A stretch of 56,394 nt of DNA from Psammoneis japonica (lineage: Eukaryota), in assembly GCA_008632985.1 (NCBI GenBank), contig QPGO01000321.1:1-56394 (forward strand), read 5' to 3'. Position numbers and translations under genes: made by a program. Numbering within the stretch: position 1 is the stretch's first letter; the number at the start of each line of letters is the position of its first letter. The notes under the pieces were generated by a model. The model was given only the letters and a program-made list of their open reading frames with translations. It did no database searches and was not told where the DNA came from. Of this stretch, positions 14,934 to 47,700 are shown piece by piece.

Positions 14934-14999
14934 CCCATGACAGATCATGGAAAAACATTCACAGGGTGACTTGCTGTTGATTGAACCTCTTGACAACAG

Positions 15000-17900
15000 C
15001 ACCAAATCTTTGGCATCCTTGGGTCTCTTTCCTTGGAAATGGCAGACCCAAACATTGCACTTTGACAGTTTCCGGTCAGTTGACATTGCAAAGTTGTGGC
15101 ACACTCATTGGTTCACCAGCATTCATCCAAATGTTCAGTGTCCAAACATTCCTCCACATCAAGGAATTAGTTGCATTGCACCAGTCAATTCTTGGTGGTG
15201 GAACAATGACAAAGCAAGTGGCATCCTCTGAACTGTTGGGAAATGGGTTGAGTGGCAACCTTGTTGATGGAAGAACAAAGGCAGCAGACAACACATCCAA
15301 AGCCTCAACAACTCTGATTTCAGACTCTGTTTCATCTCCCATGAAAAAGGTCAAGAGAGAATCTTGGGTTGGTGTGAAGCTCTCAAGCAATTAAATTGCA
15401 CAAACTGTGGATTTCTGTTCCATCATTTGATTTTCCAAGGTTGCCCACAACAACACATGAGCTGCAACCAAATGGCTCTTTTTGTTCTTTTCCCACTTCA
15501 CCATGGCCCAGGTGTGCCAACTCCTTTGTTCCCACGGATGCAAGTGAAAGTTTGTGTGACATCTCAGAACATCATGTTCACCATCAGCTGTGCCCAGAGC
15601 ATTGAATCCAAAGTGAAAGTTCACAACATCAATGGGGAAGGCTTTGTTCTGTTCTGCATGATCCAGCAAAGATGTCACCCAGTCATTGTCACAATGGCCT
15701 GGGACAAACAGATGTGATGGTGTCTGCAGCTGTTTGTCTCCACATTTTAGAGACCATGTGGCATTGTTGCCATTTGTGCAGTTTGAGTCCAGCAATGGGG
15801 TCTGTGCATCGATGACTTGATGATCGAGACACAGGAGCCTTGCCTCTTGTGCATGCAGCCAACCCACCTCCAGCAGATGCTCCTCCAACTCCCTCACCAC
15901 AAGGTCCTCACAGTGGCAATTCTTCATGTCAAGGTCAAGACAATCTTGCCAACTTGTGTTTTGGCAGGTTGTTTCAAAAGCATCTTAAGGTGCATGTGCA
16001 GAAGTGGCACACAGCAGTGCAATGTTGGACAGATTGGGGCTGTGCAATTGACTGCAATTTGGACAACAAATTGCCACTCATCAATGCTGACAATGATGAC
16101 AAGATGACTTTGCAACAGGCACTTGACATGTCAATCAATTGCATCATTGTGAACACAAACATGCAAAGAACCCCCCCCCCCCAAATGAGCTCTTGATTGT
16201 TCAATGGTCAAATGCACAAAATGACTGTAAAAAAACTGACCTTGGTGTTGGCGCGATGTTTTGCTGTTGAATGGAGGTCACTTGTGGGGACTTTCATGGC
16301 CATGACTGAACACATTTTTAAACTTAACAAACTGAATGTGTGCAAGGACATGAGACTCTGGGACACATCGCTGATGTGGCAAACATTGCAACAACACACC
16401 ACATTCATGTTGCCACCTTTTGGTGACATGTGCGCAGCATGCTGCACATTTTGTGCACAGCAGAAATTGTGAAAAATCAAATCATTGTGCCTTCACCAAA
16501 AAATTGCTGGCATTGCCACACTGATGAGTGTAAAACAGAAAGTGAAGAAAACCGTGGAACTTGGACATGTGAAGACCAGACCAAGAATGATGCTCTGGGA
16601 ATGGGCTGACAACAAATTGAAACAATTTGAGACACTGGAGAATGCATTTCTGGAGTGGAGTGAGAAAGCTTTCCTTGTTTGAGGACAGGGCAATGCTCTG
16701 TCCAATCCCAAAGATGTGAACATCAGGTGGGCAAAGTGACTCTCCAGCAGCTCAAGGCTTTCATCTTCCTTTGAAAGCATGCTTTTCAATGCAGCAAATG
16801 TCAAAAGCAACACCAAACCAGGACACTCTTGGCTGGTTGGACAAGTCTGGTCAATGACATTGTTCTCAAATGGAGTTCTTGGCATCTTCCAATCACTTTG
16901 CCTTCTGGACACACGTGCAACAACTCTGAAGTGTCTCTTGAACTCAGCTTTGTCAAAGAGCTTGGGGTGCTCCTTGAAGGTGATGGAAGGTTGGTTGTCC
17001 ATTGTGCATTCCCCATCACCAAAATGGTTGCAATGCTGTGACAACATTTTTTCTGGGACTTGGCATGGGTTGAAGAAGGCACAAAGCAGATGGTTGCAAA
17101 GGCCCAAGCAAAAGGCACACAACAGTTCTCAGGGAAGCATGCCAAACATGCCACACCTTGGTCTGCCATGAGGGATGTCCCAAAACATGGGATGAGCAAA
17201 GTGCTGTGAAATGTCCTTGCACCATTCACAAACTGCAGTCACTTTGCCATGATGCCTTTCCTCCATGACTGGTGTGGCAGCCTCCACTGTCCCCTGGATG
17301 GCAGCTTGTTCCACCAAATTGCAGCCAAACAAGGGATTGTCACCAATGCTCTGTGGTGTGTCACAGCCCCCATTCATCCAAGACATGTTGCTCAAGTGGG
17401 AGCCTTTCATGTTTCCAATTGTCATGCAGCACAATCAAAAGTGGAGATGGGCAAAGCCAAGAGATGGCACCACAATTGGGAAACAAGTCTTTTGCTTTGA
17501 CAGTTGAAGCAACTCAGCGAATGTCTCCTGCAACATGACGTGGAAAAACTTGATGTGCTTCTCCTGTCTCAGCTTCAACTCTCAGTCAGCAATGCACTCA
17601 TTGCTGTTTTTTGGACATGGTGGCACCATTTCAAGTGTTGGCCAAAGGGAGTGCCTGTGGCAACACTTGTCACTCAAATTGCTCAATGTCACAAGAAACG
17701 TGTTGTGCTTGCAGACAACCTGCATTGTCACAAAAGGTGAAATCGTCAAACAGGACAATGGGGCAAACAAAGTGTGACCTGGAAGAAGGGCAGCCATTGC
17801 CCAGTTCAGCAAGGACCAGTTGAGCAAGGGCACATTTGAGATCACACTTGGCTTGCTTCCACCAGTGTTCAGCATTGAGGGAGCCACAAATGTGCTTGTT

Positions 17901-18774
17901 TGTTTTGGGGCAGCACTTTTCCTGGTGCAACCACTGACACAACTTGACAACCTGGGGATCATGGAACACCCTTCTCACACAATGCAGAAAGGAAATTGGC
18001 ACACATGCACTGGGGGGAGCTTGGGCCCCACATGCACAGTGGAGCAAATGGGCTCCAGGCCCACATGATTGCTGGCACACTTGGCTTTCATGTGTTGCAA
18101 GGTGGCAGAGCAGGACAAAAACTTGCACTCATGGTCACTCTCCTTGGCATGTCTGGCCCAAGAGAGAAATGCCTTGCACAAACTGTGAGAGAGACAGCAC
18201 TTCTTCATCATCACAAAACAGACTCTTCCTCCACTGGGTGAAGTTTCTTGGTGGTGTTGGTTTCATGAATGTGTGGAGGTTGCAATGGCTGAGCTTCTTC
18301 CATCTCCTCTAAATCCAGTGCATCAAAGCAGTGCAAGCAATCATCTTCTTCATGGACACTGCAGTTGTTGTCCTCATTGGAGAGGGAAGTGGATGAGCAA
18401 AAATGATGCACTGAGAGAACATCAAACTCCTCCTCCAGAAAAAGCACATCATCACAGCAGAAACCATCATCAGGTGGGTCTTGAGCAATGGAGCTGATGC
18501 CAAGTTCATCCACCACTGATGCATGAGAATCAATGACATTGTCATCAAAGGTGAAATCTCCCCCTTGTTCATTGGGGGGGAGATTGCCATGGGTGGATGA
18601 TTGAAACTCTTGACTGCTGACAGGAGGAAACAAAAAAAGGTGCAACAGATCACCATCATGAAGAGACAGGGACATGAATCCTTTGGTGCTTGAATCAAGG
18701 GAATGATTGAGAGGTCCTGATCCATCAAAAAAGCTTGAGGCACCGTTGCTGCTCAGGGAGTGGTTGGGAGACAA
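15000..18774 (-). mobile_element. Decayed Plavaka-like DNA transposase
   Basis: Fragments across frames: ICGSLNAEHWWKQA, FVCPIVLFDDFTFCDNAGCLQAQ, WDIPHG..CGMFGMLP*ELLCAFCLGL, RRQSDWKMPRTPF..TSQECPGLVLLL, LKQPAKTQ, LRCHTNF..SWHTWAMVKW. These match the Plavaka motif order as I recall it once C/H are read back to Y/R. Confidence 0.7.
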
Positions 18775-20058
18775 AGTTGCATGGTTGAGGCCAAAATGGA
18801 AGAAAGAAGAACACTGGGGACACCTTTGAAAATGTCAGCAGAGAGCACCCTGGTCCTTGTTGTCAGACATCCAACCAGGACAGAGAGGATTGCAACAGGG
18901 GTGTGCCATTGTCATTGGCAGATGTCAAACAGGAGGGCATTTTGTGAGGTGTGCAGTGGAAGGACAGATTTGGCAGAAACAGAGCAAAACAAAAGGGAGA
19001 AAGCTTGCAAATGGAAAGAACAGGGGAAAATGTGTGCGAACTTCACAAGTTGAAAATGTGGATCCAATCGAAAACCATCAAGAAACAAAATTGACATCCG
19101 TGCAAATTGAAGATCTGTGGACACAATCAGCACAGTTGTGAACATTTCAATTGTTGGCAAGTGACGCTCTGGTTGAGCATGGAAACATGTCACAGACTTG
19201 TGAAAGCTTTGCTTTTCTGACAATTCAAACTCAAACTCTTGTTTCTGCACCTCAGAAACACCACTTTCTGCACTGCTCCAACTGCCACCATCGTTGCACT
19301 TGCAGGAGCACAAAAGAGGTGTGCTGGTGAATCACGGACAAACCACAGAGGACAAACAAGCTGTGGATGCTGCAGCAAAACCAACTTTGCCAAAAAGAAA
19401 GAACAATGTTTTTGATCTGGCTCAACAAGCTTCTCCAATTGACAAACCTTTTTCTCCACGTGGTGCTCCCAGCCTTTCTTTCTCTCTCTCACAAGAGAGG
19501 ACAGAGACAACGAGAGCTGCTTTTGCTGGGTGCAGCTGATGCTATGTTCCTTGAGAGGACTTCTGGCAATGAAACATGGTGTGGTTTGGAAATTTCTGAA
19601 CAAGCACGTGGTGTGCTCCTTTCTCTTTTGATTGGGGCGGCAAGACAGGTGGAGAGACAGAGCACACACCAGCACAAGCACTTGGCGGCATGGCTTTGGG
19701 TGTGCTGGAAACAGAGGCAAGGGGAACAAGCCATGTCATTGACTGCAATTGCAGTGCAAGATCGAGCTAAAAAGACTTGATAGAAAGATGCAATCAACTG
19801 CATTGTGAGAGGATCCAGAGAAGCTGCCCACTGCGCTGCGCTGTGCCGGCAAATAAATCAGCCATGCACATCCGTCCGTCCGCCGTCCGCCCGCTCGCAT
19901 CCGTCCGTCCAGATTTGGATTGAAGATCGGTTGCGATGACGGATGACTGGTTATTGACGCGATGAGATTTGCATTATCCAGGCACAACCTTCACCTCCCA
20001 CACCAACGACGAGGCAAGGAGTCATCGGTGGGTTTGATATGAGCCGTTCGCCTAGTAA

Positions 20059-24428: not shown

Positions 24429-24459
<31 letters not shown>

Positions 24460-26849: not shown

Positions 26850-29800
26850 TCGCATTCTTGTCATGTCCCGCCCTGCTGCTCCTTCTTCTCACTTTCTCTT
26901 GTGGGGGTTGCAGACAAATCTGAGGCAAAGAGAGCACAACAATTTTGCAGCAACAAAGAAACCTTGTTATTCAGAGAGCTGGGTTTGAGGGCGCTGGTCA
27001 TCTCAATGTGTCTCGACCCTTGGCATTTCTGAATCTTAGAATGTTGATGACAGCAAGGGGAGAAGAGCAAAGAGCTCTGGACCAGGCCCTGGTGCATGGT
27101 CAGAAGCAGCAGCAGCAGCAGCTGTGCAATAAAAAAGATTCTGAGAGGGAAGCTGAGCCAGCAACACAAGGAAAACATGCAAAGCTTGTGATCCCCAGAG
27201 TGGGGACAACGCAACAACACAGTGAGAGCAAAAGCACAAGCCAGCCAAGCTTCTGACAAGCACATCACAGAGCCATCTCTTGCAACACTTCTTCAGCCAG
27301 TGAAAAGCATCCACATGGCACTGAGAGCATTCCACATAACAAACCAAAGCCAAAACTCTGTGAAAAACTGATGTGAGAAACTTGATGCCAGCCAAGATGC
27401 AATTGAAAAGAAGTCAGTGGACGAGCCCTTGAAAAATGTCCAGTGTCATCACATGCGCCACAGGAAGCAGCAACAAACTCCTCTGTGCTGCTCTGCAGCA
27501 TCACAACAGGGCTGATGCCCCACTGCTGTTGCTGCCACAGAATCTGACATCAAAAGGGGGCAGAAGCAAAAGACAACAAAAAGGTCCAGCACATCACAGC
27601 GGAATCTCTGTTGGGCTTGGATCATTGCAGATGCAGGCACACACAGTCAAGAGCCCACACAATGATGGCATGTTGGGGACAACAGCAGAGGCTGCCCAAG
27701 TTGTTGAGCCAGCACGCATGTGCCAGCACTGCTCACCAACTGGAAAGAGAACCCCAAGAATGTGACACATGCATGCCAGCACACACCGCAACAACAGCGC
27801 TGTTTAAATGAACATTGATGATGACTGCTCAAACAAGGAGCACATGCATCATCACCTGCTGTGCATGTGGCAAAAAAGGATGCTGTGTGAACTCAAAAGA
27901 ATGCCTGAAGAATGAAAGAAGAGGAGGAGGAACAGCAAATGACAATGAAGATGGGGTGACAAACATTGCAGCCACAGTGGACAAAGGCAAGTTAACAACA
28001 CATGGCTTCTGATGACATTTTTTTTTAAAACCACATGAGGCCAAATCACAGGGTGCGCACACTCAGTGAAGACTTGGTGGATTGCAGGAGTGTGCAGTGC
28101 AAGCAACTGGGGGTGACTGCAAACCAAAATTGCACTGGGCACTGGACAACCAGCCCACACATGTGATGAGCTCTGCTGGGATGGCAAAAAGAAGCTGAGC
28201 AAGCTCTGCAAGTCTCAGAAATGGTTGAAGCCAGCAAGACCAAGGTTGAGTTGTGTTGCACCCTTTCCCAGTCATGGAGAAGCGTGGTGTCAACCATGGC
28301 AGCATTGAGAGTTTGTGACCAACATGAGGGCAATCATTTTGCTTGGCTCTGTCAAGCGCAAATCAAGGCAGAGTGCATGAAGTGTGGTGTGTCAAATCTG
28401 TGAAACCCACATGGATGGACAATTTAAGTTCAAATCTCTGTGATGAGCAGGCCTTGCAAAAATGGGGTGTCAACCTCAGCCAGCAATGTCAGCCAGCAAT
28501 GTTTCACTTGAAGAAAATGTTGCTGAGATTGAGCAGTTTGTGCAAACTGTCAAGGACCAAATCTGGAGCCAATGCACAATTTGCTTCCCTCCAATCACAT
28601 GTGCTGTTGCATCCAGTGTTTGAAGCAGCACTCTCTGGGCAGCATTTTTGGCCAAATTGTTTCTTGACCATGTCCAAGAGAGGAGCATTTTTTGATGATG
28701 AGCACAGCCTCCACAGTGCTGCTGTGTTCTGCTGAACAGAAGCCATGAACCTCACCGCTCACAGCCAATTTGAGTTTAAACAACCCACACAGACACACCC
28801 GCCGGGAACATGACAAAAGGACATGGGAGGGAGAGCACTGGGACAATCCACACAGATCTGCCAGGAACATGTCAAACACAGCACAAAGCCAAGGACATGG
28901 GAGTGGGAGCGCTTTCTGTCAGCCCAGCTGCCAGACACCCAAGGTGGTGCTGCCAAGTCAAGAGCAAGTTCAGTGCACAGTGCATGGAACATGGCAGAGC
29001 CAATGATGACATGAATGAAAGAGCAGCCAAGGAGAACAGACAGATGACAAATGAGGAAAGTGCAGCAGCACATGTGGTGAGAGAAAGCAGCACAAAACCC
29101 TGCATCCACCTCAATGTGACCTGCACATGCTGCTGGACATGGGCCACTCACAGCACAACCCAGTGTGATGCCAGGGGCCACTGTGGCTGTCATGGAAAGG
29201 TGCAGCAACCAAGGAAATGGAGCAACTCCTCAAATGTGTGGATGTGCTTGATCCACAACACCAGGGAGAGATGGCACAAGGAAACAACACCACAGTTTGC
29301 CAAAGATGTTTTTGAAACTGCTGAGGTGTGTCAAGGGTGCATCAAAGAACATGGGTGTGTTGGCAATGCTGGAAGACCTGGGTGCAAACACACCCAGACA
29401 AGGGTGCTTCAGTCCCTTCAGCCTGTGGTGAGCAGGTGTCCCACTGCCATGCATGGTCGGCACAACCAGGGGAGAGATTTGTCTTGACAGCACACTTGCC
29501 AGTTAGCTTTTTTTTGTGCAAAATGTGTGCAAGAATGAAACATGGATGCACAACAAGCTTGAAGGTGTGATGGTCAATGTGCACCCAAAATTGACCACAA
29601 GAAATGCTGAAAACTTGTGAGGTGCAAAAACAGCAAGAAATGGCATTTTGATGATTTCAAAATGGTGCTCCAAGTGTGGACTTGAGTGCTGCCCATGACA
29701 AATGTCATCAAAGACCTCAACAAGGAGAACACACTGCACAACAAGTTTTCAGAGCGAACAGCCATTCATGGCAACATGCATGGGCACTTGGGCATGACTG

Positions 29801-29850
29801 TCAAAACTGCAGCAGGAAAGGAAAAGTGAAGTCAACAAGCCTTCGAACCG
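26850..29850. mobile_element. TpA/CpG-depleted block 2: decayed element, family not identified
   Basis: About 10 TA in 3 kb; zinc-knuckle-like CCACGKKGCCVNSKEC at ~27855-27905. Confidence 0.65.
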
Positions 29851-30245
29851 AGTGCTCTTTGGAGTCCCCGAGTGATTCATGTTGGATCGGTCGTTCTTTC
29901 TATTACACAGCCGCACACGTCACTCTCTGTGTCTCTATCATGGGGAATTACTCTCAAGTAATTACTACATTTTTCGAGTATGGTTTTAGTCCTTTTGTCG
30001 TTGTTTGCCGGACGGGTTCTTTCTTCAGTGTGCTGTTACCTATACGATGGCGACGCGATTAACAGCATTCGGTGGCCTACGGCTCGCGAGGCGAGTCCAC
30101 GCGACGACACAGAGGATCGCGGGTGAAGCGCTGCAGCGTGGATTTGTTATCCGGAAAGTCGTCTCTCCGTGGTATTCTCCGCCATATAGCTCCACAGAAA
30201 ACGATGAACGCCGTCGATCTTTTCATTCGATTTGCAGCAATAATC

Positions 30246-31350: not shown

Positions 31351-32620
31351 CTACCACAGCATGCCACACATGTCATCTACGAGTGGAACATCGACACTCT
31401 TGGGTGACAGTTGCATTAGAGAGATGAAGATCGTAACATCCTCATTGGACCTTTCGACACACTCTCCAACGTTGAGGGAGTCGGCGCGCGTTGGACGCGG
31501 TCGAACTTTGTTTTGCTCTTCTGTTCTCCACAACTCCCGCAGTCCCAACAAGAGCCACAAGACAAGATTTGGTGGTCTCGTTGCCTGGGGAGTTGTGACT
31601 AGAGTCAGGCCACAGGTCTCTGGGTTGTCAAAAAATGAGATGATCTGCTCATCGGTGCAGCGCAGGGAAAAGTGCGCCAAGACCTGAGCTTGAGACAACG
31701 GCGACTGCTTTACAAATGGTGCAAGACCACCCCAGCAAACGTGTCCTTGGCACTTGGCTTCATTGCAAAACTCGTCTTCTAGGCATGTGCATTCAATCAC
31801 AATGACGGGACAAGAAAGGATGAGGCAGGAGCTTGCCACGTCCGGGTGCAATGCTTTGACGGTCGCGTCCAACACGAAACAAAACCTCGACTGCTCTTCC
31901 ACTTGATGCCACACATGGACATCATCTTGACCCCTTTTTTGGGTGGCTTGAATGTTGGCTGCCATTTCCTTTTTGGTTTTGTCCACCAAATGAGGAGCCA
32001 GCTTTTTGGTTTGCATCGGCGGTGTCGCTGGCCAACATCCAACGGAAGAACACATGCCATGAAAGAGCTGTGATGCTCACATCCACAACAGTGTTTGCAT
32101 CTTTTTGTTGACCATTGCATCCCATGAAATGTGCGGCACCAAGCCATGCCAGATGCGGTTGGCTGGATCGGCCAACTCCACAGCGGTGATGTTGCATTCG
32201 ATGCAGTGCAAGCGATCATCTTCTGGAGGGCCTTTGCACTGCTCAGGTGGACTCAATTCTCCTTCCTCTTGTTTGTCAACTTTGACAGAAAAGGTCAGTT
32301 GGGTGCACTGCCAAAGCCTGTGCAAGATGCTGTCTGGGGCCCCAATGTGCACCTGTTGTCCCTTTTGCTGATGGCACAGCAACATGGGCAGGGGGCATGC
32401 ATGTGATCAACATGGCTGTGGGTGATCAAAATGGCCGCCAGTCGCACTCCTGGTCCATCTGTTGGAAGGTCAATTCTGGCATCCACAATGACTCAGAGTG
32501 GGGGCATCTAAAAGCCTGTCTGTTTGAGGGATCAAGAGTGACCGGTGACGGTCCAATCCATGCCAGGAATTTTCCATGAATGGACAAAACATTGGGCCTG
32601 TGGCAAACCACTGGAGGCAA
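31351..32620 (-). pseudogene. Metallo-beta-lactamase-fold RNase Z-like pseudogene
   Basis: WTVTGHS*SLKQTGF*MPPL*VIVDARID, ILITHSHVDH, PVIVIECTCL, GHVCWGGL, VLAHFSLRC. Stops, frameshifts and apparent Y->C/H changes. Confidence 0.75.
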
Positions 32621-32788
32621 AAACGCTCATGGTGTTGTCAAGCAAAAGATGGAGGAAAGATGTGTCAGTGTGTGTGAGCATGAGGTGAAAGACACAAGGG
32701 CGCACTGTGTGTTTGGCTTTTTGAAAAAAAATGGCAGACACCCACGTCCCAACAAGAGGAAGACATTCGAGACGTCATGTTTTTTCTG

Positions 32789-32966
32789 CAGTGGCGGTCT
32801 GTCTGTGCAGTGATTTCTGTGCACATTTTGTGCTTTCATCCGTCCCTGCCACCTCCAGCCCAATCCAGTTGGAGTCAGGTTGGTCGGGTTCAGGCTGGAG
32901 GTGGTGTGGATGGACAAAAGTGCAAAACATGTGTGCAGAAATCACTGCACAGACAGACTGCCACTG
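32789..32966. mobile_element. 178-bp MITE with ~72-bp terminal inverted repeats, Tc1/mariner-like ends
   Basis: Arms 32789-32860 and 32893-32966 begin CAGTGGC and end GCCACTG. Flanks are TG and CG, compatible with a mutated TA target duplication. Confidence 0.75.
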
Positions 32967-35018
32967 CGATTCTTGCTGCAAGTGGTGACACCCAGAGCAG
33001 AAGGCACAGGAACTCTTGCAAGCTGCCGGATTGGTCATGGAATGGGTGGTCAAAATCCATTTTTTGCAAAAGAAGGAGAAGAATGACACCAAACAGGAAG
33101 AAGAAGATGGCAACCAAGAAGACGCGACTCAAGCAAGAGAAGATGATGACAATGATGATGAAGATTGTGAGTGTGAAGAAGAAGACCACAAACCAAAGGC
33201 AGCAACAAAAGAAAAGTCAAAGGCAACATCTGAAATCCAAACCCCATGTGCAATTTTGACTGGATGCAGGCATGCAAGTTGTTAGAGGCTGCAAGTGGAT
33301 CTGTCAAACAAGAGCCATTGACTTGCACTTGTCTGGCAAAGGTGACAATGATGGAGTTCAAGAACTTTTAACACCACCCAAAAAGAGCAGTCACAGGGCC
33401 ATGAAAGCACCACCTTTGATGGGAACAAAATGACAGTCGACACTCAATGCGTGGATGGGCATTCAAACACCCAAAACAAAGGGGCTAAAACAACAAAAAA
33501 TGGACTTGCATGTCACAAAATCAACAGCCAAAAAGGCTCCCATTGGTGCCAGTGCTTCGACTTTGAAAAGCACCGACCTGATGCAGAATTCAATGGCGGA
33601 AAATCCAATCTGCCTTGATGATGATGACGAGGGAGACAGGACTGCACAGGATCAGAAATCACATGATCAAAGCAAAATGAACAATCCAATCAACAGACTG
33701 ATTCTCAAAAGGAATGCCCTGAAATTGAAGCTGATTTCTGTGCCAAGAAGGCAGCAAGAACAGAAAAAGTAGAGTGCTTGTTTGCTGTGATGATTGTAAA
33801 GGCACCACCGGCTGGCCGGCCTGCAAAAGAAATGAACAATGGGACGGTGGCCGTGGACAAGAAATCCTCACAACCATCTTGTGGTGGCAGCAACAAAGAA
33901 CCAAAACCAAGCCACCAGGAGAATGCACTGCCACACAACCCACTCGCAGATGCCTTTGCAGACACAGCTTCGACTGCAAAAAGTGACGTCAAGTTGGAGC
34001 TTCTCCAAAACATCTTCAAGCATGTCACATCACATTTGTTGGAGGAGTGCACATGGACAAGGCAAGAGATGATGACATGTGGATGCTGCTCATGCAGGTG
34101 ATCAACTTGATCCTGGGAAAGCTTTCTGTCATGAGCAACATGACAAAAGGAAACGCAATGCTGCAGGTCAGCTGGTCGTTGGTGTCACAGGCAATCCAGA
34201 CAGTTGCTGATGTTTCAGGTGCCAGGATGAGAGAGGAATGTCATCATTTGGGAGATGCAGGCAATGTTGCCATGGCATTTTTCCATGGAACTTCCATTGA
34301 GTTGTGCTTTGTTGGATCAACCCAAACATGTGGCCTCAACATTTGAGAAGCACACAATTTCATTCAGAAGATTGCTGCTGTTCCGGCCAGTGCAGGGAGC
34401 AGTGCCACATGTCAAAATCTTCTCGTGAGGTGGTTGCACCACTGCAAGGACAAGAACAAGATGCAATTTCTCATAAGAACTCTGCTTGGGAATGTGTGGA
34501 TTGGAGCTGCACTGACATCTGTGATCAAGGTGCTTGCAAAAAGTGTGTTTTCTTCATGTGTGGGTCTGCAAATCACTCAAGCAGCAGTGAGCAAGCTCCA
34601 GTGGTCAGAGCTGTGGACTGTGCAAGCACCCAGCCACCTGCTTGACATTGGCAGCAAGAACCTTGAACCCCCAAGTGTGGAAGAAGGCAGAGCAATCACA
34701 TCCAACACCACAAAGTTGTTTTTTCCATCAGTGCGGACCCACCACCAGCCAGACTTGCAAACATCGATCTCGTTTTTGTGCTTGACCCCAGGCATTGACA
34801 ATCTCAAGAAGTTGGCATGCTGGTTGCACGGCATCTGTGAGTGACTTGAGACCTGTCACTCACCATTGGTGTTGATGAGTTGGACATCATTGTCAAAAAT
34901 GATGGATTGGCCGCGTGCTTCATGTGCCTGCACAAGGAGATGAGGGGCCACAACGGCAGTGCTGTGGCCGTGCACAGCCTTGGAGGAGGTGAGCCAACTG
35001 TTGCCACTCACTCAAAAG

Positions 35019-37506
35019 CAAATGTGAGCACTGCCAGGAGCTCAGCTTGGGGGTGGTCTGGTGGGCTGGCAAGAGCTTCCGGCAGCGTGCCCCACCACCT
35101 GCCTGGAAACTGGTGTGTGGTCGACGACGTGCGACATCACAGGATTGAGGTGGAGCATGAGGCCCACATTGAGGAGGATGCAAGCAGAGCTGAAGTGAAG
35201 ACTGTGGCCAAAGAGAGTGCGGCATTGAAGATGAGAGAACCAAAGCCAGGGCGGGGGGGGGGGGGGGGGGCATGTGGCAGCCCCAAGGCAAGACATCACA
35301 GTCCCCAGCAGCAAGGTTGTTGCAGGAAAGCAATGAAAAACGTGAATGAAAACAGCTCATTCTAAAATGAAAATCTATCCGACAAGTCCCTCAGGATGCC
35401 CAGCAGTTGCATCTCTAGCTGCGGCAGAATGGCAGGAGATCCTTGATGATGTGACAAACTCTAAAAGACTGGAAGTTGCTGCATCATTAGAATCATTTTT
35501 CTTCATTCGAACGGGTCATGGGCTCAGGTCTACACTGTTACTTCAATGTCTCGCATCTGTCGCGGGGGCATCTCAGCGTTGTCTTCTGTCTTCTCCATTG
35601 GCGGCAAGAAGACTCTGTGTGGCTGGTGATCTTGATTCTGAATCCCTTGAGCTGCGCACATTCCAGAAAACAATGTCAACGAGAAAGTGGGGAAAGAAAA
35701 AGAAAAAGCCGCCTCCTGGCTTTGAAGTGATCGAACCTGTGCTTGAGGCTCTTGAGAATGAAATGCGTGACAAGGTGAAGGAAAGTGACGCAGGGAAACG
35801 AAAAACAGAAAGTCCATGGCCGGTGCATCAGATAAATTGGCAGCGAACTCGATGTGTGCATGAGATGCATTGAGCCTGCAACTGCACAAGCAAACAGGTG
35901 TGCGATTTCTGCACTCAACAAGGACTCGTGGATGCACCGCTGATTGCCAAATGGAAAAAGCCAGGTTGTGAACGACTCTGTTCCACACATGTCATCAATC
36001 CAGCTAATTGCAAGTTTGGCACCACATCCATCTGTTGCACCCCAATTGAGGATAGAAGCGACGCTGCCAAAACAGCACAGGATCCAACGGTAAGTTCTTT
36101 CACGCCTTTGCTGTGAGGTCTCTGCTTGTGGTGTCGTCGGCATCTTGGCCATTCAACAGTTTTTGCGATGCAATTTTTTGCGCCTTTCTTCTGGTTTTTT
36201 TCTGTTTTGCTTGGAAAAAAGACCGGGTGCAGAGGCTGCACTTCAGGCAAGGATGCTGGCCCAAATGTGAGCACTGCCAGGAGCTCAGCTTGGGGGTGGT
36301 CTGGTGGGCTGGCAAGAGCTTCCGGCAGCGTGCCACACCACCTGCCTGGAAACTGGTGTGTGGTCGACGACGTGCGACATCACAGGATTGAGGTGGAGCA
36401 TGAGGCCCACATTGAGGAGGATGCAAGCAGAGCTGAAGTGAAGACTGTGACCAAAGAGAGTGTGGCATTGAAGATGAGAGAACCAAAGCCAGGGCGGGGG
36501 GGGGGGGGGGGCATGTGGCAGCCCAAGGCAAGACATCACAGTCCCCAGCAGCAAGGTTGTTGCAGGAAAGCAATGAAAAACGTGAATGAAAACAGCTCAT
36601 TCTAAAATGAAAATCTATCCGACAAGTCCCTCAGGATGCCCAGCAGTTGCATCTCTAGCTGCGGTAGAATGGCAGGAGATCCTTGATGATGTGACAAACT
36701 CTAAAAGACTGGAAGTTGCTGCATCATCAGAATCATTTTTCTTCATTCGAACGGGTCATGGGCTTAGGTCTACACTGTTACTTCAATATCTCGCATCTAT
36801 CGCGGGGGCATCTCGGCGTTGTCTTCTGTCTTCTCCATTAGCGGCAAGAAGACTCTGTGTGGCTAGTGATCTTGATTCTGAATCCCTTGAGCTACGTACA
36901 TTCCAGAAAACAATGTCAACGAGAAAGTGGGGAAAGAAAAAGAAAAAGCCGCCTCCTGGCTTCGAAGTGATCGAACCTGTGCTTGAGGCTCTTGAGAACG
37001 AAATGCGTGACAAGGTAAAGGAAAGTAACGCAGGGAAACGAAAAACAGAAAGTCTATGGCCGGTGCATCAGATAAATTGGCAGCGAACTCGATATGTGTA
37101 TGAGATGTATTATACCTACAACCGCATAAGCAAACAGGTGTACGATTTCTGTATTCAACAAGGACTCGTGGATGCACCGCTGATTGCCAAATGGAAAAAG
37201 CCAGGTTATGAACGACTCTGTTCCACATATGTCATCAATCCAGCTAATTACAAGTTTGGTACCACATCTATCTGTCGCGTCCCAATTAAGGATAGAAGCG
37301 ACGCTGCCAAAACAGCACAGGATCCAACGGTAAGTTCTTTCACGCCTTTGCTGTGAGGTCTCTGCTTGTGGTGTCGTCGGTATCTTGGCCATTCAACAGT
37401 TTTTGCGATGCAATTTTTTGCGCCTTTCTTCTGGCTTTTTTTCTGTTTTACTTGGAAAAAAGACCGGGTGCAGAGGCTGCGCTTCAGGCAAGGATGCTGG
37501 CCCAAA
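35019..37506 (+). repeat. ~1.24-kb tandem duplication (35019-36265 / 36262-37506) with CAAA microhomology at the junction
   Basis: Direct alignment at offset 1240-1243. Confidence 0.97.
35673..36265 (+). pseudogene. BUD31: BUD31 pseudogene (truncated, hypermutated upstream copy)
   Basis: QRTRCVHEMH* versus QRTRYVYEMYY in the intact copy. TGA at 35871-35873; truncated in exon 2. Confidence 0.95.
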
Positions 37507-37909
37507 GAACATCTTTGGCAATAAATATGGACAGAGCCTTGCAGCTGTTCAAATTGCGAGAGAGAAACGTATAGAAGCACAACGAGTAAGTGTTCATAAT
37601 TCAAAGGACATGACGATGAGCAAAATGCGCAAGCACTTCTGTTGACACCATTCCTTGCCTATTCGTTGACCACAGGAGCGGCGTGAAGAACAAGAGAGGC
37701 TCGAGGAAGAAAGGAGGAGACAAGAGGCGGAGGCTCACAATGATGATGCGGGAGATAGCGAGACTGACGAGGAAACGGATGATGAAGACTATGGGCCGAC
37801 ACCGGCTGCCGGGGTTTGGGCGGGAAGCAAGAAGTTGCAAGATGAGAGCGAGAGGATGGGAGAGGACGAAACAGACGAACCTCCGCAGAAGAAAATCCGT
37901 TCAGACTAA
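36913..37909 (+). CDS. BUD31: BUD31/G10 splicing factor with acidic C-terminal extension (exons 36913-37329, 37463-37585, 37676-37909; 257 aa)
   Basis: KPPPGFEVIEPVL, RKTESLWPVHQINWQRTRYVY, LIAKWKKPGYERLC, FGTTSICRVP, GCRGCAS; two in-frame GT-AG introns. Confidence 0.93.
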
Positions 37910-38828: not shown

Positions 38829-41185
38829 TGTTCTGAAAAGCCCGTCTACCGTTCTGGTTGATAACAGATGCTCGTGAGAGAAGGAAGCAGGAAGCCGCTG
38901 GACGCGGTGGCGGTTTCCAGTTTTTGTTGGCGACGACGACATGGCCGCAAGCTTCAAAACCCCAAACATCAGAACGCGAAGAGCGCGCGAAACCCGGCAT
39001 GCGCCAGCAAGGCAAGCGTTGCATCAGTGTTTGTCTGGAGAGGAGACAGCTTTACTGCTGGCACTGTGAAATGTCTTCTGGTGGGAGAGGTGGGAAATGA
39101 TGTTGCCTTGGCTCTCTTGGCTCCTTGCTCTTTGAAAGAAGAGTGAGAGCGTGCCAAGACTTTGCTCTTGCTCCCCAGCAGCACTGCCCTGCCCCCACCA
39201 TCACATGCAGAGTGTCGCGCAAGTCTGCAGAAGCCACTCTGGACAACTGCAAGTCTCTTCAATGTTGCACTCATGTGCACTGCAAAGGGATCTCTTGCAC
39301 ATTTGATGAATCACAAAACCCCTGTTTTTGACAAGATGCACACATCAATCAACTGACATCATGCTGGCACAAAGTTCCCAACAACTTCTGGGAACAAAAA
39401 GCAGAGGGCCATGTCAGTTGCAGAGCTGTTGCTCATGTCTTGCACATTTTGTGGCTCTGCCACAGTGGGGGTCAAAGTCCAGGCCAGCCACAATTCCCTT
39501 CCAAAAACTTTGAGTTGTGTGGGCATGGTTGTGTGGAGTCCAAACCTCGCGTGACTTGTGGTGCAATGACAGAAAGAGTTGACACACCAGCTGTTCTGTC
39601 TGTGTGCCTTGGAAACAACACAAAACCAATTCATGGCTGTGTTCCCTTTTCCAACCATGGCTGGTCTCCTGAGGACAACTGTGTGTTTGACCTCTTCAAC
39701 ACCAAAAACAGGCGCCAAACTTTCCTTAAAAATGAACACAGCACTGCGAGCCACACACACACACTCTTTCATTTTCAGATTGCACACTCACATCTTTTCA
39801 GTCAATTTAGAGCAGATGCAAGCCAGGCAGTGTTTTCAAAATTTGTCACTCTGCAGAGTGACAGCATAAAAAGGATTTTGTCAATGTGCTGTTCAGCTGT
39901 TTTTTTCTGCATTTTCACTCCAGTTCCTTCTCCACCAGTCAGCTGCAGCATGTGCTGCACTGGCAACACACAGCAAGACCCTGTGCAGCTGATCCCATGG
40001 AAGCATGGGGTGTGCGTGGCTCAGCGACTGATGCATTTTGGCAGCGAGCATCCATGCACATGGCATGCACACATTGACAGGTCATCAAGGCAACAAAAGC
40101 ATGATGACACATGAAGAGACAGCACCCATGGGTGTGTGCATGATGATGTGCAAATGGGGTTGGAGAAACTTCAAAAAGGCAGGTTGCGTGTGATCCAAAA
40201 TCTGAGCTGACAGAGAATTTGTGCAACCCCCCATTTGCACAACTCCATTTCCATCAATGAGGCAAACTGGCCTCACAATGTCTGCAATGTGACTTTCAAC
40301 AACCTGCAATTTTCATCACCTGATGGTGCACAAGGCACGGTGCCAGCTTTTGATGGGTTTGATGCTGTCTTGACAACAGTGGATTCATTGGTGTGCTCAC
40401 ACAGCTTGCAGTGAGAGCTGGCTGCAGCAGCGCAAAAGTTGAGTGATGCAACAAGTGATGAGACTGGATGTGGGACAACAACACACCACATTGACCCCGT
40501 GTTTGGCACTTGCCTTTCTGTGACTGTGGTGGGCTGCAACTCAGCAGCTGCTGGAAATCTGGCTGGTGGTGAGCACATGAACAAGAGTCAACATGCAATG
40601 TGCCATCATGAAAAAGGGAAATGCACAACCAAGACAAAGCAAAATGGGGTGTTTCATGGGTTCTTGGCAGGGAGTGGGTCTCCAGTTGGGCGGTTGCAGC
40701 CATGTGGCACCGTGTTGACAAAGATCTGACAAAGCTGCTTTCTGCAATGCCCAACAAGAAATGACAAATGACATTTGGGCACCCCATCTGCAGCAAAAGT
40801 GCAAATGTCAGTTCTGCCTGCAGTGCCTTTTTGTCAATTCTTTTGTGTTGTCACTGTGGCAGCAGCGCGTGTGCACTCACATCCAGAGCATGCCACACCA
40901 GATTGGAGTTGCTTGGAAGAAAATGATCCAGCATTGTCTGTCAGCCACAGCATGAGAAGATTGCACTGTGCAGCCTGATCCACGCAGAAAGAGATCTCCA
41001 CAAGGGGTTTTCTGTGAATTTGGCAACTCTGGGTGCTGCACTTGCAGCAAATGCCAGAGGCAGGCCCCAGGATTGAAGCACTCAGGGTGCAAACTTTCCC
41101 TTTTTGCAGCAGAAGACAAGCCCCACAAACATGCCTCTCTCTGACCTGCTCTTTCCCTGCACACTGCTGTTTGTTTGTGACCATG

Positions 41186-41364
41186 ATGGCATGATGGCAC
41201 TCTTCAGGCCAGCGCAATGGATCTGCTCTTTCGCTGCCACCCCCCTTCCTCCTCCACCACCACAAACATGAGCACACATGCTTGTCAAGCTCTCCGCAGC
41301 CCTCTTGTTTGTGTGTGACCACAACATGGCATGATGGCACTCTTCAGGCCAGCGCAATGGATCT
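41186..41364. repeat. 39-bp direct repeat
   Basis: ATGGCATGATGGCACTCTTCAGGCCAGCGCAATGGATCT at 41186-41224 and 41326-41364. Confidence 0.85.
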
Positions 41365-41577
41365 TTTCTTTTGCCGCCCCCCCCCCCCCCCCCCCCCCCC
41401 CCCCCGCACACACACACCACCACCACACACACACACGTGCACACATGTGCATTGCAGCTGGTGGTGTTCAGGGCATGGTTCACAAGGCTTTCTCCCACCC
41501 TTTCTTGAAAGTGCTGTGAAATGCTCTTTCCTTTTGTCACATGCAGAGAAGCGTGTTGTCCCCCTCTGGCTGCCCCT

Positions 41578-43029
41578 CTCAGTTTGGTTTTACCCATTTG
41601 GGGATTCCCCAAAATGGCCAGGGCAACGGGGAGTCACCTTTCCCTTTCAGGGTGATCCCGGGAAATGAGGGTAATTTTGCGGGAAGGAACGTCTGAAAGA
41701 GGTCAGGGGAGGGGAACAAAAAACGAGTGGAAAGCGGCAACTCTGGATTGATTTGTATTAGGCGCATGTGCTTTTTTATCTTGTGCGGTAGACAGACAGA
41801 ACTTACACACTGCCAGCTAGCTGGCAGCAGCTCCAGTAGAGTGGAGCAGAAAATGTCATTCACACGGCACTCTAGACTGTTGCAATTGCACTTTAAATTG
41901 GTCTACTTCGCTGCTGCCACTGCTGTTGATTCCACTGCTGTTCTCCATCTCCAAAAGCTCCACGTTGACAGAGGCTGGCTGCTCGGTTTGTTGGATCATC
42001 TCAACCAAGCATTCGTTGATCATCCATGGCTCCAACGCTGCATCATCAACTCCACCAGAACCAGCCGAGCAGGCCATGACAGATGTTTGGATCTGTGGAT
42101 GGAGAGATCCAACAGAGCTGCTGCTGCGCCGACGCTTGGCCAATGAGGCAGCCGCTGATGCTTCATTGGCCTCGGCGACATCATCTTTGGCGGCAGCTGA
42201 CGCTCGTCTCTTGGCTGCCATTCGTTCTTGTGAAGAATTGTGCAGCCCACGATGCCAGTTGGCATGGTTCTTGGAGATCTTGGCCTTGCAGGGCTTGACG
42301 TGCATCCTCTTGATCTTGCAGAGATGGGCGGTGGCTTTCGCAGCGTTGGCGCCCTTGCATGAATGCTTGCACCAGCCACACGTCCAGCCGCCTGCGTCCT
42401 CAGACACGAACTCATCGTCCCAGATGCTCGTGATTTCTGAGAGCTCCTCTTCCTCAGCGACAGCAGTGACATTGCTGTCGACACTCATGCGAGCATCACC
42501 CTCCTGCTCTTCGTCACTCATGTGCCAACATGCATTTTTTGAGAGGAAGCGAACCCATGCAATGTGAATGACAAAGATGATGGTGTGCGAAACTGAATGA
42601 AAAGACACGGGTGAGCGCACAAAGTGTGAACGAAAAGACGTTGGGCACACATCTCAGCGAAATGACATGCCGGACACGCGGCATCAAAAAGAAAGACACG
42701 CCATCAACGTGACAGCGAACAGATGCTGCATCAACGTGGTGCGGGGTGACAAAAGAAGGCGTTGCAGCTGTAGAGAAGCCGCAGCAGCTGTCATTGTGTT
42801 GAACGAACGGTGCTCCGAGCTGTTGAGCACTGCAAGTGCAACATCTGCGGGCGATGGGGAAGCACGGGGAATCACCGATGGATGATTTTTTATTCGTGTG
42901 TTAAGCATTTGTACAACGAAGGGCAATTCGTGGCGATTCCCCGGGAAAACACCCTTTCCGTAAAAAAACAGGGTAAAAGGTGGTAATCCTGGGGAGCTCT
43001 GTTCAAAAACATGGCAAAACCAAACTGAG
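41578..43029 (-). mobile_element. Non-autonomous hAT-like DNA transposon (1452 bp) with BED-finger remnant
   Basis: 17-bp TIR CTCAGTTTGGTTTT(A/G)CC at 41578-41594 and 43013-43029. 8-bp TSD CTGCCCCT at 41570-41577 and 43030-43037 (an alternative parse gives a 10-bp TSD). Internal ORF IWDDEF..WTCGWCKHSCKGANAAKATAHLCK..KPC; no DDE domain seen. Confidence 0.85.
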
Positions 43030-43146
43030 CTGCCCCTCCTTTCTGTTGTTGGCTTCACTGGACTTGTCAAGCTCTCTGCAGCCCTCCCAGCCATGAAATG
43101 CAGCACAAGCCTCTCAACCCCCAGAGAGCTGGGTGAGGGAAGGGAC

Positions 43147-43179
<33 letters not shown>

Positions 43180-43499
43180 ATGTTGTTGGGGGGTTGGGAG
43201 GGTGCTGGGGGCTGGACAACAACACAAGATGGTGTGCATGACAAGCCATCAGGTGCTGCAACAAGACACAATTGATGACAATGTTGGGGCAAGCAACAGC
43301 CTCATCTTTGGCACTCACTCTTGCTGATTTGCTTCAATGCTTGCAGTTGCTGGTCAGAATCTTTTTCTTGAGTTTCAAGCTGTGTTGTGTTTCACAGATT
43401 CTCAAACAAGAACAAGTCATGTCTGTGTCAAAAGTCATCCACAGCATGCGCCAACCAACAGAATCAGCAGCTTTTTGTGGCACTGCATGAGATGACCTG

Positions 43500-44200
43500 G
43501 AATGTGACCAAATTTTAAAAGAATTTCATTCTGTGTGCATGGGCTCTGCAACTGGGAAAGGGGTTGCTCCTGGAAATTTGCCAGACCCATGCAGCAGCTT
43601 CAGTGCTGCATTCTCATTCAAGACATTTCAACCAGATTGTTGCATCCATTGCCAGTCTCCCATGGAAGACAGGGACCACGTTCTTCACTGCCCCCATGAT
43701 GAACAATGGTGATGGACATTCCTTCAGGGCCTGCACAAAAAGTGCAACAATGTGCACATCTCTCCTTCTTTGCATGACATGCTGTTGCTGAGTTTGAAGT
43801 CTTGGTTCTGGGAAGAATTGGCACACTCAGATGATGCACATCATGGCATCTGTTCTGTCTTCCATTCTTAAGATGGGACAGGGTGGCGTCACATCTCCAA
43901 TGGCAGGTTTTTGGTGGAATGGAACACAGCTCAGCAGACACACCTGTTGACAAGCGGACATCATGATCAGGAGGTGGCGGTCGGAGATTGGATTGGGCAG
44001 CTGCAATGGGATCATGTGTTTGGTCTCAATGGCAGGAATTGTGGGACTCACACAATGACACAGTGCACGGACACGACTCGGAAACCCAAAAGTCTTCCCA
44101 ACATCATGACACCAAGGCAGAAGTCAAGGCCATCTGCTCCAGAGTCAACAATTGCTTGGCAAAGATAAGGTGCACTTGTTTGATTTGGTTGATGAGCACT
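43500..44200 (+). mobile_element. Non-LTR retrotransposon (LINE) C-terminal remnant
   Basis: CIHCQSPMEDRDHVLHCP zinc knuckle at 43641-43694, followed by W..Q..W..WQELWDSHNDTVHG across frameshifts. Confidence 0.7.
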
Positions 44201-45748: not shown

Positions 45749-46039
45749 CTTTGAGTTGACTGGTAAATTGAAGCCAGATTTTGTTGCCAAAGTCCTGCTT
45801 TTATTGGGAGCTTATCGAGTCTTCTGAAAACTCACAAGTCTAAACCAACAGTTGCCAACAGGAGAAACAGCACTATCATCTCTCATTTTATGCCGTGCCC
45901 CGGCGCGGTCGCTCATTGTGGCGGGAAAACTGTGGTCCGATGCGCGATACTGTAATGCCGGTACTGTGTAGATGGATGGGCAGCTTATGTGCTGACGTCA
46001 CCAAATCTCCACCGCGCCCTCTTGGCTGGCTTCTCACAA

Positions 46040-47700
46040 TGCTGTGATCAAGTTCGTTTCAGCGGATTTGTGAACAATGTGCTGTTGCAATCTTCAATGG
46101 ACCCAGGGACAGCGCCCCAGTCCTCAAGTCCAATGCAAACAAGCCAAAATGAAAAATGTCTGCTTTGAAAACTCTCCACAGCCACACAAGATTGCACAAC
46201 TTTGCTCACAAGATCGAGAGAGGGGCTGTGTCGCCGTGTGAGTGAGTGCATTGCAGTGGATGTTGCAGGCTCCACAACATGTGTGACATTGCAGACATCC
46301 ACAACACAGCATGATGGAGTTGACAATGAAATGCAATGCTTGAAAAGCTTTGCCCTTCAAGGAACACTTGACGTGTGCTTTTTGTGCAAAGATGTTCCTG
46401 GCTCTCAGCGCTCTCGCCAACTGCGCTGCTCAAGAGCAGCCAGATCTCCCGGCATTGCCACAGAACATGGTCAGCTGCTGCAAGACAAAAGTCTCATTTA
46501 GACTTTTGAAAGCAACAATCGGCAAGAGCAGTGCCTGGCAACAGGTGGAATCCAGGGCCTGCAAAGCTGCAAAATCAGGAAAAAACTGGGGCACAAAAAG
46601 AGCAAAGAGCAGCTGACAAGATGCAGGGGGAAGTGGAGGCACTGAAGAGCAGAGACAGCCATGTTGCTGACAAGCACACAGGCAAAAAGGCACAAATTTG
46701 CAAAAATGAAACAGGCAAAGGAGAGAGGAAACTGCGGAGAGCTTTGCGCGCCAGTTTGGCTGGTTTGACATCAAACAATCTGTCTGTGAGCCCATCTGGT
46801 GCCAATCCACACCCTGACACCAGTGACATCTCAAAGCCTGCAAGCAACAACAGCCACAGAAATGTTGACACAAGGGTTGGTTGTTGGGTGGCAAGACAAG
46901 CAGCAGATGCCATTGCTGGAAACCAGGCAATTTCATTTCCACACCATGATTGAGGAAATCTGAATGATCAGCTTTGGTTGACTTTCCACAGCAAAGCTGA
47001 GCTGCCCATGTGTGGTTGGTGCAAAGATTGCCCACAAGGTGGCCATTTGAAACCCAGCACCTGCTGAATTGAAAATGCAAGACAGGCCTCTGCAAGATCT
47101 GTGGTTGGTCAAATCAATTGCAGCTTGCCCAATGAGCAGCACACTTTTGTGTCTTGAGAATGGCTGCACTCACCAAAGAGGGAGTTGTTTGAGTTCAATG
47201 TCATCTCAAAAGCAAGGGAGCTGCACTGCATGGCAGCTCATTGAGCTTGCTTTCTTGCACTCTCATGCTGGAAGTCTTTTGAATCAAGAGCCATCTTCCA
47301 GTGTGAGCATCTTGAGCATTTTCTTCTTCATTGGGAGTGAGACACTTTGATTCCCTTGGACTTGACAATTCTGTGCTTGAGCCATTCACAGACCATTCCT
47401 GGTGCACACTGACAACCATGTGGGCACCAATCCCTTTCTTTTCTCTGCATCTCCTCCAGCAAGCATGTGAGCTGCACTTTGAGTCCCTTCACATTTGCAG
47501 CAATTGGAGTGACCACTTTGGCAAAGATCTGCAACCAGCCAGTGCAGGTGCAGGGGTGACACACAGAGCCTGGGTTGTGGTGGGTTCATCAACTACATTG
47601 TGGCAACATTGCACTGGTGGAACAAAAGCAAGTGAACAGAGAGCACGAAGGAGCAGTTCAATGGAAGCAACAAATGATTGCAAAAGAGTTTGGCACACAA
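46040..47700. other. TpA/CpG-depleted block 5: unidentified decayed sequence
   Basis: Only 2-3 TA seen in ~1.65 kb; Tyr-free overlapping ORFs. Confidence 0.75.

Follow-up and report, generated by a model that had tools for sequence, protein, structure and literature searches.

TpA-directed transitions in a dead BUD31 duplicate and in TpA-free domains of a diatom contig

The duplicated BUD31 unit

The DNA analyzed here is a stretch of 56,394 nt from the diatom Psammoneis japonica (assembly GCA_008632985.1, contig QPGO01000321.1, positions 1 to 56,394 of the forward strand), and the whole of it is referred to as the window. At 35019-37506, the window contains a 1.24-kb unit in tandem, in two copies, which spans the promoter region, exon 1, and intron 1 of the BUD31/G10 gene. 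One copy is intact and the other is dead and truncated, and most of the differences between them are transitions at TpA dinucleotides. From 5′ to 3′, each unit comprises 341 nt without TpA, around 310 nt of upstream sequence, exon 1, intron 1, and around 45 nt of exon 2. The parts of the two copies are as follows.

35019..36261, + strand: copy 1, upstream, dead and truncated; 28/38 ancestral TpA and 7/46 CpG changed in the unit alignment
35673..36089, + strand: dead BUD31 exon 1; 9/9 Tyr codons lost, Arg122-Val123 changed to Cys-Thr
36262..37506, + strand: copy 2, downstream, intact, running on into the remaining gene; TpA density normal from 36603
36913..37329, + strand: intact BUD31 exon 1, P0001, 139 aa; Pfam BUD31, E 2.1e-49
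37330..37462 and 37586..37675, + strand: BUD31 introns 1 and 2; GT..AG joints in contigs of run X2

The intact exon 1 product P0001 was 78-81% identical to its best database relatives, and the named relatives were diatoms with 71-76% identity (Pseudo-nitzschia and a "Thalass..." transcriptome). Run X2, whose contigs behaved like RNA in that they carried the GT..AG joints, covered the intact exon 1, and its exon 1-exon 2 joint was compatible with both BUD31 copies alike. From 37463 onward, BUD31 extends beyond the G10 domain as an acidic C-terminal extension, which is common to other stramenopile BUD31 proteins (alignment A1).

Mutation spectrum between the two copies

In a global alignment of 35019-36261/5 with 36262-37506, copy 2 was taken as the ancestor. 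Over the whole unit, the 1248 columns contained 42 substitutions and 4 gap columns. The substitutions comprised 16 A→G changes at the A of TpA, 12 T→C changes at the T of TpA, one T→A change adjacent to these, seven changes at CpG, and six others. Accordingly, 29 of the 42 substitutions were located in TpA, and all but one of these 29 were transitions. The initial annotation had counted 40 differences between 35361-36265 and 36601-37506, which realignment resolved into 39 substitutions and one indel, and its figure of 28 changed sites among the 38 TpA of the intact copy was obtained again, with 16 TpG and 12 CpA outcomes. The seven CpG changes (4 C→T and 3 G→A) were also recovered; the 39 CpG against which they had been set belong to the sub-range, while the whole unit has 46.

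The transitions were strongly dependent on the dinucleotide. A→G changes affected 16/38 TpA adenines versus 1/306 other adenines (Fisher p 2.7e-16), and T→C changes affected 12/38 TpA thymines versus 3/256 other thymines (p 1.4e-9). None of the 120 ApA adenines in the copy alignment was changed, and A:T transversions were nearly absent, with one T→A and one A→C. The spectrum bears out the claim of a TpA-specific, strand-symmetric burst of A:T→G:C transitions in the dead copy, which is opposite to fungal repeat-induced point mutation (RIP) and distinct from CpG decay. The claimed spatial targeting also held, with the intact copy retaining a normal TpA density. In both copies, the initial 341 nt are devoid of TpA and are uninformative on the event. 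Biased gene conversion was considered as a cause and rejected, as it is not dinucleotide-specific.

The TG and CA outcomes were not clustered along copy 1 (18 runs versus 14.7 expected, z = 1.3), and therefore each strand was struck independently rather than in long single-strand tracts. This bears on an RNA-level origin, in which a transcript edited by an ADAR- or ADAT-type enzyme with a 5′-U preference would have been reverse transcribed and inserted. A 5′ U/T preference is indeed typical of RNA adenosine deaminases, according to the discussion of a preprint on Bigelowiella natans (Mettrop et al., bioRxiv 10.64898/2026.01.13.699255). However, the dead unit retains 650 nt of upstream sequence as well as the intron and sits in tandem, both strands were struck without clustering, and the 11-kb TpA-free domains described below are not retrocopies, so that we regard an edited retrocopy as extremely unlikely.

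The damage within copy 1 was uneven, since 2/8 TpA were changed in 35363-35539 versus 26/30 in 35547-36208 (p 0.0017). The sparing of 35363-35539 could reflect a recent gene conversion, or the chromatin or a boundary near the transcription start.

Polarity of the change

The initial annotation had fixed the direction of change by conserved BUD31 tyrosines, and an alignment of 16 stramenopile BUD31 proteins confirmed this. Y61, Y67, Y99, R122, and V123 were invariant among the 16 proteins, and Y63, Y77, and Y113 were kept in at least 90% of them. Copy 1 was altered at each of these residues (Y61, Y63, Y67, Y77, Y99, Y113, R122, and V123). Because copy 2 carries the conserved tyrosines, its state is the ancestral one. 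Every Tyr codon of the dead copy has been lost, as had been stated, and the nine codons now read C, H, H, stop, C, C, C, H, and C.

The differences between the copies are formally CpA/TpG versus TpA, and a RIP-like C→T change at CpA might in principle have made the TpA of copy 2; diatoms reportedly carry DNMT4 (RID-like) methyltransferases. The probability of such a reversed polarity is negligible. Copy 2 is an expressed, intact gene with tyrosines that are invariant among the 16 stramenopile proteins, and the reversed process would have changed merely 27/234 CpA/TpG while recreating precisely the conserved residues. Moreover, the domains described below are free of TpA, contrary to the products of RIP. 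The reading with RIP polarity was thus ruled out by protein conservation.

The altered bases in sequencing reads

The bases were checked against Logan contigs of the public DNA run X1, which represents one sample. These contigs are short and k-mer based, with a depth of 24-90, and all 30 bins along the ~3 kb compared were covered. Pieces specific to copy 1 were found at 35389-35524 (one other letter), 35495-35687 (no other letter), and 35938-36078 (no other letter), and among the matches listed X1 reproduced 14/28 of the changed TpA sites. The contig at 35495-35687 holds TG and CA outcomes interleaved, and the changes are therefore fixed base pairs rather than strand-specific misreads.

X1 differed from the window at four places in 3 kb, three of which were fixed in the reads. 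At 35488, the window has TA and the reads have CA, so that the one exception of the initial annotation, a TA→CA change in the other copy, vanishes. At 37017 in copy 2, the window has TA and the reads have TG, and the tally with the read version is 27/37. At 37664, the window has CG and the reads have TG. These three differences of the window from the X1 and X2 contigs all fall into the same mutation classes and could be strain differences arising from the same processes, or assembly errors.

A base-calling artefact had been named as the finding that would overturn the claim, and this explanation largely fails, as the X1 contigs show the mutated bases with TG and CA interleaved. In its most specific form, a modified base at TpA in heterochromatin would have been misread as G or C. 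The platforms of both the assembly and X1 are unrecorded, and X1, being one sample from one study, may be the source of the assembly; these circumstances leave a slim chance for such an artefact. Against it, deep short contigs repeat copy 1 with 0-1 other letters, and a strand-specific misread would yield all-TG and all-CA versions while the contigs carry both. The DNA ligase pseudogene described below has matching codon-level changes, and the main text of the preprint describes the same signature among new mutations in mutation-accumulation lines of another alga, which were sequenced with Illumina technology (Mettrop et al.).

In 34800-37800, the contig depth was ~30-42 for copy 1 and the upstream flank versus ~62-89 for copy 2 and the downstream flank. 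The roughly halved depth of copy 1 and the upstream flank could be explained by hemizygosity of the duplication or by strong heterozygosity in the domains, contig depth not being copy number. The poly-G run at 35253-35270 differs from its counterpart at 36495-36510 by two bases, and its length is uncertain, as one X1 contig ends there.

TpA- and CpG-free domains across the window

A dinucleotide scan delimited six domains with a total of 23,691 nt, or 42% of the window. This total counts D3 as 31781-35018, and the continuation of D3 through copy 1 to 36602 was listed apart. Observed/expected ratios are abbreviated as O/E.

8396..19542, unstranded: D1, TpA- and CpG-free, 11 kb; TpA O/E 0-0.11, CpG O/E mostly 0-0.17, TG+CA O/E ~1.5-2.15
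27000..29900, unstranded: D2, TpA- and CpG-free in the dinucleotide scan
31781..36602, unstranded: D3, TpA-free; contains the ligase pseudogene, a spacer, dead copy 1, and the 341-nt spacer of copy 2; CpG O/E 0.15-0.7
39054..41590, unstranded: D4, TpA- and CpG-free in the dinucleotide scan
41905..44165, unstranded: D5; TpA O/E 0 and 0.23 at 42001-43000, where CpG O/E is still 0.7-1.0
45987..47593, unstranded: D6, TpA- and CpG-free in the dinucleotide scan

The phenomenon is thus larger than the dead BUD31 copy alone. The domains contained 55 TpA (0.23% of dinucleotides) versus 1166 (3.86%) in the rest of the window, and 251 CpG (1.06%) versus 1718 (5.69%). The share of TG+CA was 23% in the domains versus 14% in the rest, while total pyrimidine-purine steps amounted to 0.243 versus 0.236. 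The shares of AT, GC, AC, and GT were the same in the domains and the rest, and the G+C content was unchanged. Therefore, the composition of the domains reflects a pure transition conversion of TA and CG into TG/CA. Overall, the domains had a TpA O/E of ~0.03 and a CpG O/E of 0.04-0.2, with a CpG O/E of 0.30 in the last bin of D1 (19001-19500), and copy 2 and the neighboring genes had a TpA O/E of ~0.55. The edges of the domains are sharp, with the change taking place inside one 500-nt bin. Under a single fixed criterion, 93/224 bins of the window were flagged. The control, which comprised 397 kb from 80 metagenome loci surrounding BUD31 relatives, had 0/1471 flagged bins, these loci being metagenome contigs that are biased to gene-dense DNA.

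The domains that carry the signature are not repeated within the window. The name "reverse-RIP" given in the initial annotation is consequently not supported in the sense of a repeat-induced process, as only one of the two BUD31 copies was struck and ~24 kb of domains that are non-repeated within the window share the signature.

Searches for the origin of the domains returned little. A Pfam search of the six-frame read-through of 8501-19502 in D1 gave 0 families, and a Pfam search of 80 domain open reading frames (ORFs) gave merely a sub-threshold DNA_ligase_A_N match and one chance match, with no viral or transposon family. Homologue searches with the ORFs 41859-42653 (- strand) and 13863-14930 (+ strand) found nothing, and a viral-contig scan with the ORF 39332-40111 (+ strand) found no relative. 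Heavy decay could mask a foreign origin of the domains.

A DNA ligase pseudogene as second record

Besides the dead BUD31 copy, the sole recognizable content of the domains is a pseudogene in D3, directly upstream of the BUD31 duplication.

33001..34553, + strand: truncated ATP-dependent DNA ligase pseudogene; residues 26-405 of the 892-aa ligase P0124

It was matched to P0124 by phmmer (E 2.3e-12), and a tblastn alignment of 175 columns showed 55% identity (E 6e-63). It lacks the adenylation domain and the C-terminal domain. The next ORF, P0123, had no ligase similarity, and the end of the pseudogene therefore lies near 34553. An intact ligase paralogue is presumably located elsewhere in the genome. 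Over the 370 columns aligned with the homologue, the pseudogene has C, C, H, and E in place of the four Tyr. Of the 25 Arg in the homologue, 5 are kept and 14 have given way to Q, H, C, W, or stop, as CGN→CAN/TGN changes would yield. The losses of both Tyr and Arg indicate that the older domains carry both processes, with like polarity.

Order of decay

Copy 1 has lost 74% of its TpA and 15% of its CpG. The sequences of the window can be arranged in a decay series, which runs from copy 1 to 42001-43000 (TpA gone, CpG O/E 0.7-1.0), the ligase domain (CpG O/E 0.15-0.39), and D1, where both ratios are ~0. In this series, the dead BUD31 copy is the most recently affected sequence, 42001-43000 in D5 marks a young stage, and the CpG decay of D3 is intermediate. 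Roughly, the decay series can be read as an age series in which TpA loss is ~8 times faster than CpG loss. Since the two losses are separable, TpA loss does not follow from CpG decay. A rough estimate, which rests on the six "other" substitutions, puts TpA loss at ~240 times other substitutions per base; this is comparable in order of magnitude to the 1000-fold excess given for Bigelowiella in the preprint (Mettrop et al.).

Motif preference and candidate chemistry

For the effect of the 3′ neighbor, each TpA was counted as two potential target adenines. The ratio of changed to total adenines was 13/21 with a 3′ C, 7/20 with T, 4/18 with G, and 4/17 with A, and TAC (13/21) exceeded the other neighbors (15/55) with p 0.008. 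TACG targets were changed on the predicted strand in 3/3 cases, which are small numbers. Among the TpA that survive in the domains, TTAA accounted for 18/55 versus 46/1171 outside, and domain sites with a 3′ T on either strand were almost gone (5/542, with the AT, CT, GT, and TT classes combined). This T-A-Y preference together with the resistance of TTAA is a signature for judging candidate enzymes.

The natural site of bacterial TadA is U-A-C-G, and the likeness of the motif found here to this site is suggestive. Adenine deamination is the most likely chemistry, with an adenine deaminase as the best candidate for the enzyme. A thymine-directed route was weighed against it, in which a TET/JBP-type dioxygenase would oxidize the T of TpA in silenced chromatin to 5-hydroxymethyl- or 5-formyl-uracil, which would pair with G. 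At a palindromic site every outcome fits this route equally well, 5-formyluracil is known to mispair with G, and some protists put modified T preferentially at TpA. No sequence evidence favors it, however, the 3′-C preference and the 3/3 TACG targets read more naturally as a TadA-like adenine context, and adenine deamination is what the B. natans authors propose in their preprint (Mettrop et al.). We consider the thymine-directed route unlikely, with some weight left to it.

Error-prone repair in methylated chromatin, for example by DNA polymerase eta (Pol eta) at WA motifs, had been suggested in the initial annotation. A→G at TA does belong to the WA motif of Pol eta, and the loss of CpG from the domains points to methylation, hence to repair traffic. 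The data do not fit this route, as all 120 ApA adenines were left unchanged and A:T transversions were almost absent, and the loss of TpA is near-complete (O/E 0.03) with TTAA surviving. Repair by Pol eta is very improbable as the source of the changes, and adenine deamination remains the preferred chemistry.

Interpretation

The spectrum, its polarity, its restriction to domains, the higher rate of TpA loss compared with CpG loss, and the 3′-neighbor effect are established by the alignments and counts given above. They probably reflect, in this diatom, a process of TpA→TpG/CpA transition that is restricted to chromatin domains in silenced DNA and accompanied by slower CpG decay. In the mechanism that we propose, TpA would be changed to TpG or CpA by transition on either strand at random, at ~10^2-10^3 times the background rate, while CpG would decay to TpG/CpA more slowly in these domains. 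Older targets, such as the ligase pseudogene and kilobases of unidentifiable intergenic DNA, would be driven to near-complete loss of TA and CG. Chemically, an enzyme would convert adenine in DNA to hypoxanthine by deamination, in the context 5′-T-A-(C/T), and the candidate enzyme may be a TadA/ADAT2-like or orphan deaminase drawn to silenced, probably cytosine-methylated chromatin, as proposed for B. natans. Its role might be the inactivation of non-functional, foreign, or duplicated DNA. Repeat induction, a defense function, and a link to methylation are thus what we infer, as opposed to what was counted.

Several points weigh against this interpretation. Run X1 has no recorded platform and may be identical with the source sample of the assembly, so it is not fully independent, and among the X1 matches listed no contig was seen across the tandem junction at 36261/36262. 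The noncoding TpA sites and most of the domain sequence take their polarity from parsimony. As TpA is palindromic, the sequence alone cannot tell adenine deamination from a thymine-directed route. The gene-dense bias of the control loci also belongs here. Unlike the targets in B. natans, the domains yielded no viral or transposon family, and a "defense" function is a conjecture. Finally, the little-changed 5′ 180 nt of copy 1 contradicts a simple spreading from the older upstream domain.

Relation to known systems

The closest parallel was described by Mettrop et al. (bioRxiv 10.64898/2026.01.13.699255), who followed mutation-accumulation lines of the chlorarachniophyte B. natans and reported 231 de novo mutations. 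According to the main text of this preprint, the mutations were nearly all A→G/T→C and all on TpA, and they occurred in silent integrated giant-virus and virophage regions at ~1000 times the background. The long-term trace consisted of clustered windows of TpA depletion with a gain of CpA+TpG, and rho was 0.45 in a nucleocytoplasmic large DNA virus (NCLDV) region. The authors propose adenine deamination and cite DNA-editing activity of TadA/ADAT2-ADAT3 in amphioxus and Trypanosoma. The main text of the preprint makes no mention of diatoms, stramenopiles, CpG, or trinucleotide context.

The window resembles this case in the near-exclusive A→G/T→C changes at TpA on either strand and in discrete regions, and its host likewise belongs to the SAR supergroup (stramenopiles, alveolates, and Rhizaria). 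The confinement to regions that is seen in B. natans is found here as six sharp-edged domains, and the depletion of TpA with a gain of TG+CA is found as well. As far as the main text of the preprint goes, the two cases differ in the following respects. The host is a diatom here and a chlorarachniophyte there; the targets are host-type gene fragments and unidentifiable DNA here and viral inserts there; and the depletion is much stronger here, with a TpA O/E of ~0.03 over 42% of a 56-kb window versus a rho of 0.45 there. CpG is lost in the same domains here, and TAC is favored with TTAA surviving, whereas the preprint's main text has neither CpG nor a 3′-neighbor effect. De novo mutations were observed in B. 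natans, while the process is known here from its sequence traces. The term "undescribed" used in the initial annotation can consequently not be kept for the process as such, since the 2026 preprint describes the same TpA→TpG/CpA change; it stands for diatoms, for which full-text literature searches found no report of TpA→TpG/CpA hypermutation. One hit of these searches, PMC4504042, was discarded, as "TpA" had matched "Tpase" (transposase) and the TA remark of that paper concerns nucleosome positioning.

In RIP of ascomycete fungi, C→T at CpA makes TpA, and both copies of a duplication are mutated. The process found here is like RIP in that a duplicate is inactivated by dense, context-specific transitions, with a dinucleotide scar remaining as a mark of silenced DNA. 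It differs in direction, as TpA is destroyed here with the polarity given by conserved Tyr, and in extent, as one copy was struck and the TpA density of copy 2 is normal, while RIP strikes both. Decay of 5-methylcytosine (5mC) at CpG would account for the seven CpG changes in copy 1 and the low CpG O/E of the domains, but it cannot change TpA. Here it is ~8 times slower than the TpA process, and it is absent at 42001-43000, where TpA is already gone.

With TadA and ADAT2-ADAT3, the process would share a target adenine after U/T, provided that adenine is the base attacked. A T on the 5′ side was strictly required here, no trinucleotide was hit more often than TAC, and TACG was hit in all of its few cases. 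DNA-editing activity is also known from adenine base editors. The natural substrates of these enzymes are tRNA loops, however, and not chromatin domains. AID/APOBEC enzymes produce C→T in WRC/TC contexts, and Pol eta produces mixed changes at WA motifs in somatic hypermutation. Both are comparable as enzyme-driven local hypermutation with a short motif, whereas here only the A of TpA changes, ApA being unaffected (0/120), and there are no strand-coordinated clusters.

Significance

To our knowledge, no natural enzyme has been established as a chromosomal adenine mutator for genome defense or silencing. What is new in the window is a new host phylum and new features of a kind of process described months ago. 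The window adds a clean before/after record in a gene duplicate of known ancestral state, a decay series with the loss of TpA ahead of that of CpG, a 3′-neighbor rule that any candidate enzyme must match, and evidence that a large intergenic share has been rewritten. In the literature searched, the 2026 preprint on one chlorarachniophyte is the only prior report of the signature.

A broader proposal, which we make tentatively and hold to be somewhat doubtful, is that in diatoms, and with Bigelowiella perhaps in SAR at large, chromatin-guided DNA adenine deamination together with 5mC deamination may erase every TA and CG step from silenced DNA, acting on dead host duplicates and invaders. If true, such a system would be functionally equivalent to fungal RIP although opposite in chemistry. 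It would then limit gene duplication, leave large TG/CA-rich "ghost" domains in the genome, and offer a natural adenine editor for double-stranded DNA that recognizes a T-A-Y motif. The questions made testable are the spread of the process in SAR algae, its recruiter (repeats, silencing marks, or foreignness), and whether the enzyme is a deaminase or a dioxygenase. In practice, TpA/CpG-free domains will mislead gene finders and repeat annotation and erase the protein homology of old insertions, and they could serve as a simple genomic marker of silenced chromatin.

Other features of the window

Between the domains lie ordinary genes, namely those for an FMO-like protein, a GH2 beta-galactosidase, a pseudouridine synthase, BUD31, a lipoate-protein ligase, a rhodanese/UPF0176 protein, an RRM protein, and a BP28CT protein. 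No tRNA genes were found in the window. The segment 41591-41904 is a 300-nt island of normal TpA between two TpA-free domains, in which no tRNA or protein family was found. At 12096-12340, D1 contains an 83-nt tandem repeat in three copies, of which the second is 96% and the third 67% identical to the reference copy; CA versus CG is among the differences between the first two copies. At 24091-24639, four diverged 81-nt repeats ("...EIESLGGDPFFLD...") lie in frame within an ordinary gene without a Pfam family.

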